A stretch of DNA of 64,000 bases from an uncultured Candidatus Saccharibacteria bacterium (GTDB lineage Bacteria > Patescibacteriota > WWE3 > UBA101185 > UBA10185): NCBI GenBank assembly GCA_964385105.1, contig CAYLMU010000001.1, positions 369,936-433,935 of the forward strand, written 5' to 3'. A program made the translations under genes and the position numbers. Under the pieces are notes generated by a model. It was given only the letters and a program-made list of their open reading frames with translations. It made no database searches and had not been told where the DNA came from. Positions 6,422 to 61,165 of the stretch are shown here, piece after piece. Positions within the stretch are counted from its first letter, which is position 1. Every line of letters starts with the position of its first letter.

Positions 6422-8497
6422 GTGTTTGATTTACAATCCAATTACAAACCAACAGGTGATCAACCGAAGGCAATTGAGCAGCTAACCAAAGGTGTACTGG
6501 ATGATAAGAAACACCAGGTTTTACTTGGTGTCACGGGTAGCGGAAAAACTTTTACCGCGGCAAATGTAATACAAAATGTTTCAAAACCATCTCTTATTAT
6601 TTCCCACAACAAAACATTGGCGGCTCAGCTGTACCAGGAGTTTAGGGATTTTTTTCCAAATAATGCTGTTGAGTTTTTTGTAAGTTATTACGATTATTAT
6701 CAGCCCGAAAGTTATATTCCTCATACTGATACATATATTGAAAAAGACGCGGATATTAATGAAGAGATTGACAAATTAAGGCTGTCTGCCACAACGTCAC
6801 TTATGACAAGAAAAGATGTAATTATTGTTGCGTCGGTATCCTGTATTTATAACCTGGGATCGCCTGCAGAATATTCCAAAGTAGCTTTAGAATTGAAAGA
6901 GGGCATGAAACTTAGACAATTAGACTTGTTGAAACGTTTGGATCAGATTCATTATGACCGAGATGAGTATGATTTTAAGCGCGGTACATACAGAGTTCGT
7001 GGGGATGTAATTGATGTGTATCCGGCTTATTTGGAGTATGCGGTACGGCTTGAACTTTTTGGTGATAATTTGGCAAATATTAGTTTTTTTGACCCTTTAA
7101 CCGGAAACCAGGTAGACAGAACAGGTTTACCCGTTGAAAGAAGAGGCAGCCATACAAAATCACAAACTATGGATGAACAGACTTACAACGAACTGCGTAT
7201 GAAAGAAGGCGGATTTGTTGAAATTTATCCTGCCAAGCACTATATAACCGCAGAAGAAAGAAGAGAAAGTGCATTGCAACAAATTGAATTTGACCTTCAA
7301 CTAAGGTTAAAAGATTTAAGAGATATGGGTAAAATGGTTGAAGCATATCGTCTTGAACAAAAAACCATGTATGACCTTGAAATGATTCGTGAAATTGGTT
7401 ATTGCAAAGGAATTGAGAATTATTCCAGGTACTTTGACGGACGTGCTCCGGGTGCCAAGCCTTATACACTCATGGACTTTTTTCCGGAAGATTATTTAAT
7501 TATTATTGATGAATCTCATATAACGATTCCGCAAATTAGAGGTATGCACAATGGTGATCAGGCAAGAAAAAAGAATTTGATTGATTACGGATTTAGACTC
7601 CCTTCGGCTTATGATAACAGGCCTTTAAATTTTGATGAATTTATGCAGAATACTAATCAGCTGGTTTATACCAGTGCTACCCCCTCGACGTGGGAATTGG
7701 AAATTTCAAACAAAAACATTGCCGAACAATTAATAAGGCCCACAGGAATTACAGACCCCATAATTCACCTCAAACCGACAAAAGGTCAAATGGAAGACTT
7801 GCTTAGTTTGATTAAAGAAAGAACAGCAAAAGGTGAGCGTACATTGGTAACTACCTTAACAAAAAGAATGGCAGAAGAATTATCGTCATATTTGGTTGAA
7901 AAAGAAGTAAAAGTAACTTATTTGCATTCAGACATTGTAACGCTTGAGCGAACCAATATTCTTGATGATTTACGTCGCGGGAATTACGACGTGCTTGTGG
8001 GAATTAATTTATTGCGTGAAGGTCTTGACCTGCCTGAAGTATCATTGGTAGCAATATTGGATGCAGATAAAGAAGGCTTTTTGAGATCGGAATCATCGCT
8101 TATACAAACAATGGGAAGAGCTGCAAGACATATTAGCGGTGAAGTGGTGATGTACGCCGATAATGTCACCGGTAGCATGAAGAAAGCAATAGAAGAGGTT
8201 GAAAGAAGAAGAAAAATTCAGGAAGAATATAACCGTGAACACAACATTATTCCAATGAGTATTCAAAAACCGGTTAGAGAAAAGCTCATTGACGAAATAC
8301 TGCAGGAGCAACTTGCCAATAAAAATAAAATTGTGCATGAAGTTGATTATATGCAGCTCCCTCCAAATGAACTTAAAAAAGAAATTAAGAAGCTTGAAGA
8401 AACAATGAGATATGAAGCCGAGACCCTAAACTTTGAAAAAGCAGCATCATTACGCGATGAAATACGAAAAATTAAGAAAATGACAAAAATCAATTAA
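6422..8497 (+). CDS. uvrB: excinuclease ABC subunit B
   Basis: 691 aa with the helicase Walker A motif GVTGSGKTF, the UvrB beta-hairpin region, and a C-terminal UVR domain ([20 protein letters not shown]). Confidence 0.95.
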
Positions 8498-41939: not shown

Positions 41940-42015
41940 TGGAGCCGGTGGTCAGAATTGAACTGACGACCTACCCCTTACGAAGGGGTTGCTCTGCCAA
42001 CTGAGCTACACCGGC
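41940..42015 (-). tRNA. tRNA-Thr (anticodon CGT), CCA encoded
   Basis: The reverse complement folds as a cloverleaf: acceptor GCCGGTG/CACCGGC, anticodon loop TTCGTAA, T-arm GGTCGTCAGTTCAATTCTGACC. Confidence 0.85.
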
Positions 42016-42023
42016 TGAGTTAT

Positions 42024-42098
42024 TGGAGCGGGTGAAGGGAATCGAACCCTCAACCTTCTCCTTGGGAAGGAGACACTCTGCCATTGAGCCACACCCGC
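42024..42098 (-). tRNA. tRNA-Gly (anticodon CCC), CCA encoded
   Basis: Reverse complement GCGGGTGTGGCTCAATGGCAGAGTGTCTCCTTCCCAAGGAGAAGGTTGAGGGTTCGATTCCCTTCACCCGCTCCA. The anticodon loop is TTCCCAA. Confidence 0.85.
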
Positions 42099-42906: not shown

Positions 42907-42983
42907 CTGGCGGGACCAACGGGGCTCGAACCCGCGACCTCTGCCGTGACAGGGCAGCGCTCTAACCAACTGAGCTATGGCCC
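42907..42983 (-). tRNA. tRNA-Asp (anticodon GTC), CCA encoded
   Basis: Reverse complement GGGGCCATAGCTCAGTTGGTTAGAGCGCTGCCCTGTCACGGCAGAGGTCGCGGGTTCGAGCCCCGTTGGTCCCGCCA. The anticodon loop is CTGTCAC. Confidence 0.85.
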
Positions 42984-43069
42984 CCCGCTTTTTCATTTAC
43001 TAAAGGTGTTCGAATATTAACAAATTGTGTATTTAGCGTCAATAAAATGATAAATGTTATTATGGCAAT

Positions 43070-54456: not shown

Positions 54457-54531
54457 GGGGGCGTAGCTCAGTGGTAGAGCATCTGGCTTTTAACCAGAGT
54501 GTCGTGAGTTCGATCCTCACCGCCCTCACCA
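54457..54531 (+). tRNA. tRNA-Lys (anticodon TTT), CCA encoded
   Basis: GGGGGCGTAGCTCAGTGGTAGAGCATCTGGCTTTTAACCAGAGTGTCGTGAGTTCGATCCTCACCGCCCTCACCA. The anticodon loop is CTTTTAA. Confidence 0.9.
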
Positions 54532-57762: not shown

Positions 57763-57888
57763 TCAAGTCAGGTCGTCCAATTATATTGATGTATAAACAT
57801 ATGAAATTAGTAGGGTATAATAAATATTATGCCGATTCCAAGTCATATCTTTGATAATGTGTTAAATTAACCTCACAAAATGCAATCA

Positions 57889-57993
57889 AAAACCCAAAAA
57901 TGTCCAAACTGCGGAAATTCGATGAACTCAATTAAAGGCGCAACAAAAGCAATATGTAAAAACTGTGGGCTAAAAGACGGGTGTTGTTATTGA
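57889..57993 (+). CDS. 34-aa zinc-ribbon mini-protein (MQSKTQKCPNCGNSMNSIKGATKAICKNCGLKDGCCY)
   Basis: ATG-to-TGA ORF below the ORF-track cutoff, with CxxC-x14-CxxC. It sits in the 235-bp gap before the convergent SpoU gene. Confidence 0.3.
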   Translation, partial: KTQKCPNCGNSMNSIKGATKAICKNCGLKDGCCY

Positions 57994-57997
57994 GATT

Positions 57998-58708
57998 TTA
58001 TTTATTAATGTAGCTCTTATACAACACAACCCCAACCGCCATAGACAAATTCAGTGAATCAATACTATTTTCATGCTCAATGTGCACACTTTCGCCTATA
58101 TTTAAAAACGAATCATCAAGACCGCTGCTTTCAGGGCCAAAAACCAGCGAAAAAGGTTTGGCAAAAGTTGTGTTTTTGAGTTTTTTGTTGCCATTAAGCA
58201 TAAACGTGTAAATAGAATTTTGTGGAAATTTTTGCTGATAGCTTTTAAAACTGTCGAAGTATTCAAAATTAATATCAAAAAGTGAACCCATTGATGCCCG
58301 GATTGTTTTTGGGTCAAATACATCTACACCCGGTCTTATTACAATTAAGTTATAAACCCCAAAACCTGACATTGTTCTAATAATTGTTCCTAAATTACCC
58401 GGATCGGTAGGATTAACCAAAACAAGATGATTTTCGCCATTTTTTACATTACTATCGTATTTTTTAAAAAACCCTGCTGCGTAGGTGTTTTCTTTGACCG
58501 AAACCTTTTTTAAGTTTTTTAAACTATATTCAAATTCAATGTTTTTTTCGGTGCAAAGCTTTTTTATTTCTTGAACGCCTTTGTTGGCATCACTTTTTGG
58601 ATTTAAAACAACTTTTATTATTTCGCCTGGTTTTTTATTAATTAGTTCAAGTGTTGGGTAAACTCCAAGTGTATATGTATAGTTTAATTTTTTTGTATAT
58701 TTTTTCAT
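57998..58708 (-). CDS. SpoU/TrmH family RNA 2'-O-methyltransferase
   Basis: SPOUT motifs (LVLVNPTDPGNLGTIIRTMSGFG ... FGPESSGL ... LNLSMAVGVVLY). Confidence 0.8.
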   Translation of the reverse strand: MKKYTKKLNYTYTLGVYPTLELINKKPGEIIKVVLNPKSDANKGVQEIKKLCTEKNIEFEYSLKNLKKVSVKENTYAAGFFKKYDSNVKNGENHLVLVNPTDPGNLGTIIRTMSGFGVYNLIVIRPGVDVFDPKTIRASMGSLFDINFEYFDSFKSYQQKFPQNSIYTFMLNGNKKLKNTTFAKPFSLVFGPESSGLDDSFLNIGESVHIEHENSIDSLNLSMAVGVVLYKSYINK

Positions 58709-58766
58709 ATTAGCTTTGGTAGCGGTTTCATAATATTATGTTTTTGTTATTACAGCAATGATATAT

Positions 58767-58796
58767 TTGACAAATTAAAAAAGTAAGTAGTAAGAT
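58767..58796 (+). promoter_or_regulatory. candidate promoter (TTGACA-18-TAAGAT) for the leader/ATP-grasp transcript
   Basis: Perfect -35 TTGACA at 58767-58772 and a -10-like TAAGAT at 58791-58796. The leader ORF ATG is about 17 nt downstream. Confidence 0.35.
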
Positions 58797-58812
58797 TAAG
58801 CATTAAATAATT

Positions 58813-58905
58813 ATGAAGTCACATAATTTATTAAAAGTTAATAGTTTAAGTAAAGTTTTTGGTCTCTTTATTATGTTCACGACAGAGAGGGCCGGAGGCA
58901 TGTAG
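58813..58905 (+). CDS. 30-codon leader ORF (MKSHNLLKVNSLSKVFGLFIMFTTERAGGM)
   Basis: ATG-to-TAG ORF whose last codons (GCC GGA GGC ATG TAG) are strand 1 of the antiterminator. There is no strong SD, so translation is unproven. Confidence 0.3.
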   Translation: MKSHNLLKVNSLSKVFGLFIMFTTERAGGM

Positions 58906-58966
58906 CTTAAGTTACTAACTTTTAAAAATACTAAGCCTCCGGGTAAAACCGGGGGCTTTTTGTTTT
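58892..58966 (+). promoter_or_regulatory. mutually exclusive antiterminator/terminator (attenuator or riboswitch expression platform) upstream of the ATP-grasp gene
   Basis: Seg1 CCGGAGGC (58892-58899) is perfectly complementary to seg2 GCCTCCGG (58935-58942). Seg2 also pairs with seg3 CCGGGGGC (58949-58956) as an 8-bp stem, followed by TTTTTGTTTT (58957-58966). Confidence 0.55.
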
Positions 58967-58982
58967 GCACGTTAAAAAGTTA

Positions 58983-59041
58983 ATTGATAGAGCCGTTAAG
59001 AATTTCAAATTTATTTTGGAGTTTTTTGTGGCTCTATTGAT
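58983..59041 (+). promoter_or_regulatory. 12-bp perfect inverted repeat ATTGATAGAGCC-N35-GGCTCTATTGAT immediately upstream of the ATP-grasp RBS
   Basis: Seen directly. The right arm ends 11 nt before the AAGGAG SD (59052-59057). Function unknown. Confidence 0.4.
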
Positions 59042-59064
59042 AAATAACTAAAAGGAGATTTGAG

Positions 59065-60357
59065 ATGAGTAAGGTTGTATCGCTTTTACCTGAGTATGAA
59101 GAAGAAATACTGAATTTAAGTGGGTATACATTATATTCTTTTCGGAGTTTACTTGGAGGTGATAATCAGAGTTACACTTTGCTGCCGCAAACGAGTTTTG
59201 GAGTAAACTTACCAGAAATTGAGTACCTACACGAATTAGGTTTTTGCGGCCCTGTTGAAAGAGCTTTGCATTTGCCGGGAGTGTCTATTATGCCTCAACA
59301 AAGAATCTTTGAGCCTCAAAATTCAGCTTTGCTGGAAAAGTTACGCAAAGACGGTGTAGGTATTGAGTGTGTTGATTTGCGAAGTAATAATGCAAGGTTG
59401 GCAGTAGAACTTGGAGTTATGACTAAAGATTTTGCACGGCTTCAAACTTTACTAACTGAAACAGCAGATGACAAGCTTTGGTTGCGTACAACAGCAGAAA
59501 GTTTGGGTTTAAGTCATCATTTGGTGCCCGGGGGTTGTGCAAGGTCATTAAGTGAGTTGAAAGAACTTTTTGACTGCTATATTCAACTAACAGGGCAAGT
59601 GGTATTTTTGGATAACCCAAGATTAGGAGGTGGTGTAGGATTTCATAAAGTTAAGAGTTGGGAACAATTGCTTAAACTTTTAAGTAATTTGGAATGGGGT
59701 GAGAAATTTCCACATGAGGTTTTGTTAACTTCTTACGTAGAAAAATGGTCAAGCCCTTCGATTCAATGGGATTGCAGATCTGCAACAGGACCGGAACTTG
59801 TTGGAATCACAATGCAACTCTTAAACGGGGATTTTGACCACGCAGGAAATTCCATTCCTTCAGGGCTTAGCAAAGAGCAGGAAAACGCCATAATTAACAT
59901 TACACGACCATTTGCGCAACATCTGCATGCTATTGGTTTTAGATGGGTTGCGGGTTTTGACCTGATTCATTCAAAACTTGAAAATCCTACACCAAATGGA
60001 ACCAATTTTTACGTGCAAGAATGTAATCCGAGGCATGTTGCTCCGTTTTATGCCCGCAAAGTGCAAAAACAACTGCAACATACAGGCCCAGCTTTAATGT
60101 TGAATGTGAAGCCAAGTATACCGACAACTCCAAAGGCAGTGCATAACTTACTAAAAACCAAAGGTTTGTTGTTTGGTAGATGTACTGAAGGTTGCGTAGT
60201 ACCTTATATGACCACATCCTCACAGATGAAAAATCCTAAGTTTGCGGTAGTAGTGTTGGGATCTACTCTTCAAGAGGCAAAAAGCACTGCGACGGCGGTA
60301 AAAAGGTCATTTGGCGACGAATCAAACGTTATGTACAGCTTTGAAGTTTATCAATAG
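59065..60357 (+). CDS. ATP-grasp family ligase (carboxylate-amine/thiol ligase), uncharacterised
   Basis: C-terminal ATP-grasp Mg/ATP motif GFDLIHSKLE...NFYVQECNPR (compare D-x-...-E-x-N-P-R of CPSase/biotin carboxylase/RimK) and a ~200-aa N-terminal pre-ATP-grasp region. Preceded by a strong SD. Confidence 0.6.
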   Translation: MSKVVSLLPEYEEEILNLSGYTLYSFRSLLGGDNQSYTLLPQTSFGVNLPEIEYLHELGFCGPVERALHLPGVSIMPQQRIFEPQNSALLEKLRKDGVGIECVDLRSNNARLAVELGVMTKDFARLQTLLTETADDKLWLRTTAESLGLSHHLVPGGCARSLSELKELFDCYIQLTGQVVFLDNPRLGGGVGFHKVKSWEQLLKLLSNLEWGEKFPHEVLLTSYVEKWSSPSIQWDCRSATGPELVGITMQLLNGDFDHAGNSIPSGLSKEQENAIINITRPFAQHLHAIGFRWVAGFDLIHSKLENPTPNGTNFYVQECNPRHVAPFYARKVQKQLQHTGPALMLNVKPSIPTTPKAVHNLLKTKGLLFGRCTEGCVVPYMTTSSQMKNPKFAVVVLGSTLQEAKSTATAVKRSFGDESNVMYSFEVYQ

Positions 60358-60442
60358 AGTAATGGAAGTTTTGCAAGCACAGCTTTATGTATTTAGGTTG
60401 TGCTTGCTCTCTTTAAAGTTAATTGTTTAAGATTAGGAAAAT

Positions 60443-61165
60443 ATGAAAAAAATATTATTAATTCAATTTCGTGATGATGTGACACAAGAGCATGAAGTAA
60501 AATGCTTTTTAAACAAGCTTAAAATAAACGAATCTGAATTAAAGGTTTTAAATGCAATATTAGATAATTTTGAATATGAGCCTGAAGTTTTATTACAGGA
60601 TGTTGGTGCTGTGATCTTTGGCGGGTCAGGGCAGTATGATTTGTCACTAAATCAAGAACCAATAATTAAAGCTTTTAATAACACAAAAAAACTTGTTGAT
60701 TACATTTTAAAAAATGACTTTCCTACATTGGGAATTTGTTTTGGGCATCAGCTGCTGTCGCAAAGACTGGGTGGTGTGGTTTTGCCTAATGAAAATATGC
60801 GTGAAACAGGCACTTTTGAAATTAGGTTGAATAATGAAGGAAAATCAGACAAACTATTTGGTGATTTAAAAGAAACCTTTTTAGTACAAGAAGGTCATAA
60901 AGAAAGCGTTACAAATATTCCGTCTGACGTGGTTTTGCTTGGTAGTAGTGAAAGGTGTGAAACTCAAATATTCCGCTACAAAAATAATATATATACAGCT
61001 CAATTTCATCCTGAGTTAACAAAAGAAGACATAAAATATAGATTGAGCCTATTTCCCACGTACTCGCAAGGAAAAAACATTGAAGAAGCCACAAAAGACA
61101 TAAAAGAGACTCCCGAAGCTGAAAAAGTATTGCAAAAATTTGTGAGCCTATATTTGAGTTCGTAA
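60443..61165 (+). CDS. class I glutamine amidotransferase-like (GATase1 / peptidase C26 gamma-glutamyl hydrolase-like) protein
   Basis: Catalytic Cys in GICFGHQLL and a downstream His (AQFHPEL), the conserved GATase1 triad spacing. It is a stand-alone 240-aa protein with no synthase partner domain. Confidence 0.8.
   Translation: MKKILLIQFRDDVTQEHEVKCFLNKLKINESELKVLNAILDNFEYEPEVLLQDVGAVIFGGSGQYDLSLNQEPIIKAFNNTKKLVDYILKNDFPTLGICFGHQLLSQRLGGVVLPNENMRETGTFEIRLNNEGKSDKLFGDLKETFLVQEGHKESVTNIPSDVVLLGSSERCETQIFRYKNNIYTAQFHPELTKEDIKYRLSLFPTYSQGKNIEEATKDIKETPEAEKVLQKFVSLYLSS

Follow-up and report, generated by a model that had tools for sequence, protein, structure and literature searches.

What decides whether RNA polymerase reaches a gene that lies behind a terminator of its own leader? 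This question is raised by the region upstream of a predicted ATP-grasp amide ligase gene in a 64,000-nt stretch of DNA (hereafter the window) from an uncultured Candidatus Saccharibacteria bacterium (contig CAYLMU010000001.1, positions 369,936 to 433,935 of the forward strand). The leader region (58709–59064) is flanked on one side by a divergent SpoU-family methylase gene on the minus strand (57998–58708) and on the other by the 430-codon ligase gene, which is followed by a gene for a class I glutamine amidotransferase (GATase)-like protein. An earlier note on this DNA had read the leader as an attenuation-type switch built around a short open reading frame (ORF). We conclude, at a probability that we put at about 0.68, that 58767–59064 is a ribosome-dependent (leader-peptide) transcription attenuator gating a divergent PGM1/LdmS-type ATP-grasp amide ligase. 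This reading draws on the sequence elements of the leader, on their departure from chance, on the fact that they recur in distant orthologous loci, and on the thermodynamics of folding. Throughout, coordinates given without a locus name are window positions, and L-numbers denote loci of other genomes, each with its own numbering.

A short ORF, alternative pairing segments and a terminator precede the ligase gene

All of the leader elements lie on the plus strand. A consensus scan placed a promoter-like site, TTGACA-18-TAAGAT, at 58767–58796 (10 of 12 matches), and the ATG of a 30-codon ORF (MKSHNLLKVNSLSKVFGLFIMFTTERAGGM; 58813–58905 in the ORF list) follows 16 nt downstream of the −10 hexamer, which gives a very short 5′ untranslated region. 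Both had been described in the earlier note, as had three GC-rich octamers further downstream that we found again. The first of these, seg1 (CCGGAGGC; 58892–58899), occupies codons 27–29, ends 3 nt short of the stop codon and would form the 5′ strand of the antiterminator. It is perfectly complementary to seg2 (GCCTCCGG; 58935–58942), which a repeat search located after an interval of 35 nt. Seg2 is a shared strand, since it can pair with seg1 as antiterminator or with seg3 (CCGGGGGC; 58949–58956) as terminator, the latter being the 3′ strand inside the intrinsic terminator AAGCCTCCGG-GTAAAA-CCGGGGGCTT plus TTTGTTTTGC detected by a terminator scan at 58933–58968 (stem of 10 pairs, 7 of them G–C; loop of 6 nt). 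The three octamers fall inside 65 nt, whereas the surrounding DNA has a GC content of 28–33%. Of 2000 dinucleotide shuffles, only 19 produced a perfect 8-nt complement to the 5′ arm of the terminator within the upstream leader (p = 0.0095).

The 174-nt RNA 58797–58970 folds with a z-score of −6.45 against shuffles, and the fold is strand-specific (−54.3 kcal/mol, compared with −37.9 kcal/mol for the opposite strand; 12 G·U among 62 pairs). The minimum-energy and centroid folds both contain a long imperfect hairpin of 94 nt at 58832–58925, corresponding to segments 1:2 of an attenuator, with 36 pairs, 10 of them G·U, and an energy of −26.6 kcal/mol, as opposed to −16.5 kcal/mol for the other strand. 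The 5′ arm of this hairpin lies within codons 7–20 of the leader ORF and includes seg0 (GUUUUUGG; 58856–58863), and its 3′ arm holds seg1. Because seg1 is paired with seg0 in the minimum-energy fold, the window attenuator is a four-segment system. The three segments of the earlier account are real, but one of them has a further partner.

Between the terminator and the Shine–Dalgarno (SD) sequence of the ligase gene (AAGGAGA, 59052–59058, 6 nt ahead of the ATG, as previously noted) folding revealed a second long hairpin (58978–59047; −29.0 kcal/mol, compared with −12.3 kcal/mol on the opposite strand) with about 30 pairs, 6 of them G·U. It had been taken for a 12-bp perfect inverted repeat; as DNA, the repeat is imperfect (58980–59044, 30-nt arms, 70% complementary), and the hairpin relies on G·U pairs in the RNA. 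Hairpins also fold at the equivalent position in L010, L012 and L006. The same 10-mer, AAAAGTTAAT, opens both leader hairpins of the window (58833–58842 and 58975–58984), and a 19-nt segment is common to the two at 79% identity (58854–58872 and 59020–59038); in addition, 59002–59017 can pair alternatively with the SD and start region at 59051–59066. These features could stem from duplication of a module or provide an additional, translational level of control.

Distant ligase relatives share the leader architecture

Conservation across homologous loci had been proposed as a check on the attenuator, and both the small ORF and the complementarity between its end and the terminator do recur in distant relatives. 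Beside the window, the architecture was found ahead of the ligase gene in five lineages (L010, L012, L006/L009, L014 and L015), whose ligases are 23–27% identical to that of the window and whose DNA has 47–65% GC. The order is promoter-like site, near-leaderless ORF of 24–42 codons, intrinsic terminator, SD and ligase gene. Promoter-like sites of the TTGACA/TTGCCA type with 16–17-nt spacers precede the leaders of L010, L012, L014 and L015 as well as those of two further ligase loci, L008 and L016; in L006, no promoter-like site was assigned upstream of the ORF. The relatives' leader ORFs start 7–12 nt past the −10 hexamer without an SD, and the intrinsic terminator lies 18–28 nt past their stop codon. 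For L014, the leader ORF that we favour is 309–410. The gene caller reported a different ORF there, of 43 codons (257–388) and with a good SD (AAGGAG), which shares sequence with the promoter-like site and with the 5′ end of the favoured one.

The dimensions of the six leaders can be compared directly. The ORF has 30 codons in the window, 24 in L010, 42 in L012, 42 in L006, 33 in L014 and 26 in L015. Taking the loci in the same order, the complement to the terminator ends 3, 13, 9, 12, 6 and 11 nt before the stop codon, the terminator begins 27, 18, 28, 24, 22 and 22 nt after it, and the ligase start follows the terminator by 106, 47, 62, 78, 34 and 48 nt. At every one of these loci, the 5′ arm of the terminator finds its best perfect complement within the final ORF codons: CCGGAGGC (window), GGGCTTTTT (L012), TCAGGACTT (L006/L009), CGGCGG (L010; ACCGGCGG when bases of the loop are included), GAGCTT (L015) and CCTTTG (L014). 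In the order used above, shuffling gave p values of 0.0095, 0.088, 0.0065, 0.0025, 0.30 and 0.075, which combine by Fisher's method to 1.6e-5. That the last nine codons should hold the best complement at all six loci has a chance of 8.9e-5. A closer comparison is offered by L006 and L009, whose ligase loci are 95% identical. Their leaders differ at 1 position in 130 nt after the ORF, compared with 91 in 1224 nt of the ligase gene, and none of the six differences in the small ORF touches the antiterminator segment (three are synonymous and three non-synonymous, which is uninformative as to dN/dS).

The distance between terminator and ligase bears on another arrangement, in which 58797–58968 would be a gene in its own right, encoding a small RNA or small hydrophobic protein and ending in a constitutive terminator, and the ligase would have its own promoter inside 58969–59064. 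The 106 nt available in the window suffice for a promoter, a TTGGAG...TGATAAAT-like site can be picked out by eye near 59014–59044, and the free RNA does form the terminator (P = 0.96). However, the consensus scan detected no promoter-like site in 58969–59064, the complementarity of seg1 and seg2 would be left without purpose, and the relatives leave far less space: in L008, L010, L014 and L015, the ligase start comes just 21–48 nt after the terminator stem. As there is no room for a separate promoter, the ligases of these four loci need read-through of the terminator, and terminators that are passed in this way must be conditional. We consider an independent gene with a constitutive terminator very improbable.

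Computed folding links terminator formation to ribosome position

For each codon of the leader ORFs, we masked a 27-nt ribosome footprint and calculated how probable the terminator helix is in the ensemble. For the free RNA, or with the ribosome early in the ORF, this probability was mostly 0–0.3 in L010, L012, L014 and L015, reaching up to 0.6 at a few L012 codons, and was noisier in L006 (0–0.6). With the ribosome on the last 8–12 codons, it was about 0.6–1 in the first four loci and largely so in L006. According to these models, the relatives are three-segment attenuators in which complete translation would terminate transcription, and a stalled or missing ribosome would allow read-through.

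For the window, the outcome depended on how folding was simulated. The free RNA forms the terminator with a probability of 0.96, and in equilibrium folding with footprints the antiterminator never appears, the terminator winning at all positions. In the window, the attenuation logic of the earlier note is seen in co-transcriptional folding only; recurrence in the relatives supports it as well. When the transcript was cut just after seg2, before seg3 is made, the probability of the seg1:seg2 helix was about 0.9–1 with the ribosomal P-site at codons 5–21, and 0 for the free RNA or with the ribosome anywhere from codon 22 to the stop codon. The latter result agrees with the previous suggestion that a ribosome at the leader stop occludes seg1. 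The antiterminator of the window is thus presumably trapped kinetically, and classical attenuators likewise rely on kinetic trapping for read-through.

On these grounds, the window leader would work as follows. Transcription would start a few nucleotides upstream of the 30-codon ORF. If no ribosome is on the leader, the long hairpin with its seg0:seg1 pairing and the seg2:seg3 terminator would both form, and transcription would end near 58966. A ribosome that stalls early, with its P-site at about codons 5–21, would melt the 5′ arm of the long hairpin and so free seg1, which could pair with seg2 before seg3 is transcribed, and RNA polymerase would then read into the ligase gene. Once a ribosome arrives at the final codons or at the stop, it would cover seg1, and the terminator would form again. 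We infer that the leader ORF is translated and that termination is conditional in vivo.

Difficulties of the attenuator and alternative readings of the leader

A number of points speak against this mechanism, the first being that its support is confined to sequence and computed folding. In the window itself, the leader ORF is not preceded by an SD, and the p value of the single locus is only about 0.01. Even when a ribosome is stalled on the leader, the full terminator exceeds the forced antiterminator in stability by 5.6–11.5 kcal/mol, so that read-through depends on kinetic trapping. Moreover, the relatives are default-ON three-segment devices, and the design of the window is default-OFF. 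The collections searched contained no close orthologue with which covariation of the window's own segments could be judged; the only contig of the same strain (L005) begins within the ligase gene, past the leader. Finally, an ORF of 30 codons is not improbable by chance in window DNA. Coincidence would then mean an ordinary terminator preceded by an ORF and a complement that are both accidental, and it fits the single-locus p value, the unremarkable ORF length and the promoter scan, which returned 16 promoter-like sites in this AT-rich DNA compared with 15.9 expected from shuffles, that is, not fewer than chance would give. Nevertheless, there is no upstream gene on the plus strand for such a terminator to end, the SpoU-like gene being divergent and on the minus strand, and the architecture recurs in five other lineages. 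We regard coincidence as extremely improbable.

A different kind of difficulty comes from lineages that keep alternative hairpins without a conserved ORF. L008 and L016 conserve the promoter-like site, a hairpin (with one compensatory change from U–A to C–G), the terminator and a sequence that mimics its 3′ arm, and L017 carries a three-segment element, GUCGGGA/UCCCGAC/GUCGGGA, without a U-tract. The ribosome is therefore not the sensor at every locus. Judged by these sequences, the topology of the switch is more conserved than its sensor. The ORF-less leaders of L008 and L016 would suit a riboswitch or a protein- or tRNA-binding leader, in which the long hairpin is the sensor, seg1, seg2 and seg3 form the expression platform and the ORF is fortuitous; the riboswitch option had been raised before. 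So would the strong, strand-specific structure of the window RNA and the S-box riboswitch found in some LdmS operons (PMC9486568). Against such a sensor, the region that would have to bind the ligand is a near-continuous hairpin without a junction or a conserved internal loop, and no conserved aptamer-like RNA emerged from the comparison: an alignment at the RNA level was not possible across lineages, and what the leaders have in common is the ORF, the point at which its frame ends and the distance from there to the terminator.

Scans against Rfam 15 also argue against 6S, SRP, T-box and known riboswitches and leaders. At gathering score, the whole window gave only four tRNAs (Thr-CGT, Gly-CCC, Asp-GTC and Lys-TTT, at 41940–42098, 42908–42984 and 54457–54531), and 12 related loci gave tRNAs only. 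With E values up to 10, region 58700–59080 yielded low-scoring, chance-level matches driven by the terminator hairpin and nothing convincing; the Phe_leader match, for instance, scored 20.7 bits, with a gathering score of 55, and covered the terminator alone. Taking the evidence together, we find a ligand-, protein- or tRNA-binding leader quite unlikely.

The leader peptides themselves complicate the attenuator reading further. A gap-rich alignment of the six peptides has in common M1, one Phe (F19), one Arg (R26) and the Gly after it; similarity between loci is weak, amounting to MK(N) at the N-terminus and a hydrophobic-R-x-G pattern at the C-terminus. Even this could be partly a by-product of constraint on the RNA, in that GGN-CUU-UUU mimics the terminator 3′ arm plus U-tract, and part of the C-terminal pattern may be the GC-rich antiterminator read in frame. 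None of the six peptides contains a codon run for one amino acid; by our own count, Phe and Asn are enriched about two-fold. The C-terminal hydrophobic-R-x-G recalls the arrest cores of SecM and RAPP peptides. RAPP-like arrest peptides (SecM, ApdA, ApdP and ApcA) have RAPP, RGPP, RAPG or RAGP as their core (PMC12992588), and we rejected this motif, as the window peptide ends in RAGG-M-stop, that of L014 carries RPGP, and R-x-G-L is present in the others.

The peptide could alternatively be the precursor or substrate of a PGM1-type peptide ligase, by a RiPP-like logic, with the hairpin as a partial terminator that sets the ratio of precursor to enzyme transcript; such a role may coexist with attenuation. 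In line with this, the nearest solved relatives of the window ligase are PGM1-type peptide ligases, PGM1 ligates ribosomally made peptides (PMC8939145), and both the position of the small ORF and a weak peptide similarity are conserved in six lineages. A partial terminator, however, needs no antiterminator, yet at each locus with an ORF the best complement to the terminator 5′ arm sits in the last ORF codons. The short, hydrophobic peptides differ widely from one another in both length and sequence, a conserved ORF is missing from L008, L016 and L017, which do carry ligase and GATase, no gene for a leader protease or an exporter adjoins the window genes, and LdmS and BesA, which belong to the same clade, use free amino acids. 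A precursor or substrate role of the peptide is, in our estimate, unlikely. A wider proposal, to which we would give similarly little credence, is that the leader peptide is a ligand-sensing arrest peptide of the TnaC or SpeFL type, responding to the substrate or the product of the ligase, or else the ligase's own acceptor peptide, that the GATase amidates or trims the product, and that the module has spread across phyla, including genome-reduced Patescibacteria. If the peptide were indeed the acceptor of a PGM1-type ligase, the locus would be a self-regulating peptide system made of ribosome and ligase.

The gene behind the leader is predicted to encode a divergent PGM1/LdmS/BesA-type ligase

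The gene behind the attenuator (59065–60357, plus strand) encodes a protein of 430 amino acids that single-sequence searches barely place. No Pfam model matched it, and NCBIfam and PDB searches gave nothing usable. In a word-indexed search of 5.8 billion proteins the ligase found only itself, and another word-indexed search returned 4 proteins; the exact sequence is not on record. A single-protein scan of a species-representative genome collection retrieved nothing, not even the window locus, a scan of a viral collection found no relatives, and PADLOC gave no match. Relatives came from an exhaustive HMMER search of 1.84 billion representatives, which identified 20 at E ≤ 1e-3 (best 4.5e-12; 25–31% identity). 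An 18-sequence alignment of this family showed K137, G190, G261, G297, D299, E319, N321 and R323 to be invariant and G192 nearly so. The invariant set comprises the Lys, the Gly-rich loop, the Asp and the E-x-N-x-R motif of ATP-grasp enzymes, which are nucleotide- and Mg2+-binding residues; the last of these (E319, N321 and R323) had already been recognized in the earlier note.

Against solved structures, the family profile matched 8ynd, a Streptomyces ATP-grasp peptide ligase (6e-27; aligned to its positions 23–402), then PGM1 (3wvq, 2e-19) and LdmS (7r8p, 2e-18), and further down BesA (8yi6), followed by generic carboxylases and GAR synthetases, with many ATP-grasp structures among the matches. 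Two Pfam domains of the clade were detected among the 18 relatives, Pre-ATP-grasp (PF18604) in 6 and PGM1_C (PF18105) in 3. AlphaFold with the alignment gave a confident model (pLDDT 85.8, pTM 0.87), whereas the single-sequence model was unusable (pLDDT 35). Foldseek aligned the former over its full length to 8ynd and 3wvq (TM 0.72–0.78; 435–466 alignment columns), and it has the complete three-domain architecture of pre-ATP-grasp, ATP-grasp and PGM1-type C-terminal domains. Profile and model thus place the protein as a very divergent member of the PGM1/L-amino-acid-ligase clade and a predicted ligase, which most likely joins a carboxylate to an amine (of an amino acid or small peptide) via an acyl-phosphate.

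More specific identities were considered and rejected. The earlier note would have been undermined if the protein had proved to be a housekeeping enzyme such as Ddl or RimK; by profile and structure it is neither, and falls in the PGM1/LdmS/BesA clade. It is no LdmS equivalog, scoring 19.6 bits on NCBIfam NF047900, whose cutoff is 475. A graspetide macrocyclase, which the idea of a graspetide-like precursor and ligase would call for, does not agree with PGM1, BesA and LdmS as nearest relatives, and PGM1 is only distantly related to graspetide ligases (PMC8939145). The ligase gene has a GC content of 0.40–0.42, compared with 0.31–0.35 in the flanking genes, and no close homologue was found anywhere searched; its recent horizontal acquisition is possible.

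A conserved GATase gene follows the ligase, probably as a separate transcription unit

The gene downstream of the ligase (60443–61165, plus strand) encodes a class I GATase-like protein of 240 amino acids (PF00117, 1.6e-19, above cutoff). It has the GICFGHQ nucleophile elbow with its Cys, as seen earlier, and an FHPE (His-x-Glu) motif. Among solved structures it comes closest to stand-alone A subunits of GMP synthase, to TM1158 and to gamma-glutamyl peptidase 1 from plants; a PRK07567-like match fell below cutoff, and the Peptidase_C26 match was weaker (1.4e-5). Homologues of the GATase carry Patescibacteria names, on which grounds the window can be called CPR-like (candidate phyla radiation), and in the closest of them (50–56% identity, from other Patescibacteria) the upstream genes are unrelated to the ligase. 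The gene pair of the earlier note is nevertheless conserved as such: where the flanking sequence sufficed for a judgement (L006 is truncated), a homologous GATase gene directly follows the ligase at eight loci, namely the window, L008, L009, L010, L014, L015, L016 and L017. L012, which has a ligase without a GATase, is the one exception, and the more distant ATP-grasp relatives L007, L011 and L013 also lack it.

Control of both genes by the same switch, as previously assumed, is not borne out. The window has an intercistronic hairpin with a 13-bp stem and CTCTCTTT (60373–60407, plus strand, found by folding), possibly a weak terminator. Strong terminators occupy the same place in L009, L014, L015, L016 and L017, and L010 has GC-rich hairpins with a poorer U-run. 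Right past the intergenic terminator, a TTGAC promoter-like hexamer is present in L009, L014 and L016. In view of these terminators and hexamers, the pair is a module of conserved synteny but probably forms two transcription units. The arrangement suggests that the attenuator controls the ligase, and that the GATase is probably transcribed largely on its own and reached at most by read-through.

Synteny suggests a functional link, in which the GATase would act either as an ammonia donor for the ligase or as a gamma-glutamyl-type hydrolase. In carbamoyl-phosphate synthetase, the ATP-grasp enzyme CarB is of the double type, and an additional N-terminal domain is present in CarA. The window pair resembles CarA/CarB and other GATase–synthetase pairs in placing a class I GATase beside an ATP-grasp enzyme that forms (here by prediction) an acyl- or carboxy-phosphate, but pairs of the window type are usually split by a terminator, and this GATase family also occurs without the ligase in other Patescibacteria. 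By analogy, glutamine-dependent amidation seems at least as plausible as a make-and-break gamma-glutamyl function. A pair of the PuuA/PuuD type was rejected, as the ligase is an ATP-grasp and not a glutamine-synthetase-like enzyme and the Peptidase_C26 match is the weaker one. In the literature we found no paper that combines an ATP-grasp enzyme, a GATase and a leader peptide.

The wider neighbourhoods vary. In two lineages (L008 and L006/L009), the neighbours of the ligase–GATase pair include tRNA-Pro(GGG), a thioredoxin-like CPHC protein with a membrane anchor (56% identity from L008 to L009) and a Peptidase_M50 protein (44% identity); this context lies at 7457–9595 in L008, at 1735–2154 and 4916–6256 in L009 and at 5–337 in L006. 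L008 also holds DsbB and MgtC, and L003 and L004, Patescibacteria relatives that have only the GATase, adjoin thioredoxin or DsbD genes. The thioredoxin-type neighbours may reflect a thiol or envelope link, or only shared ancestry. About 1.1 kb upstream of its pair, L009 (a gammaproteobacterial metagenome-assembled genome) has a second, more distant ATP-grasp gene (184–1371, PF02655). In L012 (3995–5524), thymidylate-synthase-like and YunG/dCMP-deaminase-like proteins follow the ligase and an ADP-ribosylglycohydrolase precedes it, a context that resembles nucleotide modification. In the window, on the far side of the SpoU-like gene and next to a MazG-like gene, lies a 37-codon ORF (MQSKTQKCPNCGNSMNSIKGATKAICKNCGLKDGCCY; 57880–57993) with two CxxC pairs (zinc-ribbon-like) and a Cys-rich C-terminus.

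Discussion

The leaders of the trp, pheA, his and leu operons of Escherichia coli have a promoter-proximal short ORF and the alternative pairings 1:2, 2:3 and 3:4, of which 3:4 is an intrinsic terminator. In classical attenuators of the trp type, a ribosome at the leader stop covers segment 2, and the terminator is the more stable structure, the outcome being decided kinetically. The window leader is alike in its short ORF, its four segments with alternative pairing and its more stable terminator. It differs in that the ORF is near-leaderless, without an SD and without a run of regulatory codons, in that the regulated gene is an uncharacterised ligase and not an amino-acid biosynthesis operon, in the three-segment default-ON version used by its relatives, and in having no match to an Rfam family. 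Its short ORF lies close to the predicted transcription start and upstream of the regulated gene, an intrinsic terminator stands between ORF and ligase, as it does in all compared leaders, and ribosome position sets mutually exclusive antiterminator and terminator structures, in the window co-transcriptionally only; clustered codons for a cognate amino acid are missing. By structural criteria, the sequence thus points to a classical leader-peptide attenuator, except for the codon runs, and one that is not in Rfam.

Other attenuators do without such runs. In the ermK, bmrB-bmrCD and vmlR leaders, the short ORF has none, and slowing of the ribosome within an early window switches the terminator to the antiterminator. 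The present leader shares with these drug- or stall-responsive attenuators both the ORF without codon runs and the early stall window, but it has no link to antibiotic resistance, with no ABC-F, methylase or efflux gene near the ligase.

For the regulated enzyme, the nearest functional precedent by analogy is the hmrA/ldmS operon of Staphylococcaceae, in which an ATP-grasp L-amino-acid ligase stands beside a hydrolase, and which has an S-box terminator-type leader in some species (PMC9486568). The window ligase belongs to the same structural clade (7r8p/7r8q) and also stands beside a candidate hydrolase. In hmrA/ldmS, however, the partner is an M20D metallopeptidase placed upstream, and control is exerted by CodY/CymR or a SAM riboswitch (PMC9486568), whereas in the window the partner is a downstream class I GATase and the proposed control is of the leader-peptide type; identity in the structural alignment is about 13%. 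Ligases of the PGM1/pheganomycin type (3wvq and 8ynd) are the best full-length matches by profile and structure, and they too have a small ORF nearby, but identity is 14–17% and no biosynthetic cluster surrounds the window gene. A GATase is, moreover, no part of the pheganomycin system as described (PMC8939145).

In summary, the proposed regulatory device is of a known kind, and the two-gene module attached to it is uncharacterised and phylogenetically scattered. That one architecture is kept ahead of a single enzyme family in DNA ranging from 33 to 65% GC is evidence for tight coupling of ligase expression to translation status. To our knowledge, few families of leader-peptide attenuators have been catalogued outside amino-acid operons and resistance genes, and little has been documented in candidate-phyla-radiation bacteria. 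The ligase family has about 20 detectable relatives among 1.8 billion representative proteins and is nearly always followed by a class I GATase, and the pair may define an unknown metabolism of small amides or dipeptides. The attenuator provides a handle on it, as whatever stalls the ribosome on the leader would point to the substrate of the pathway.

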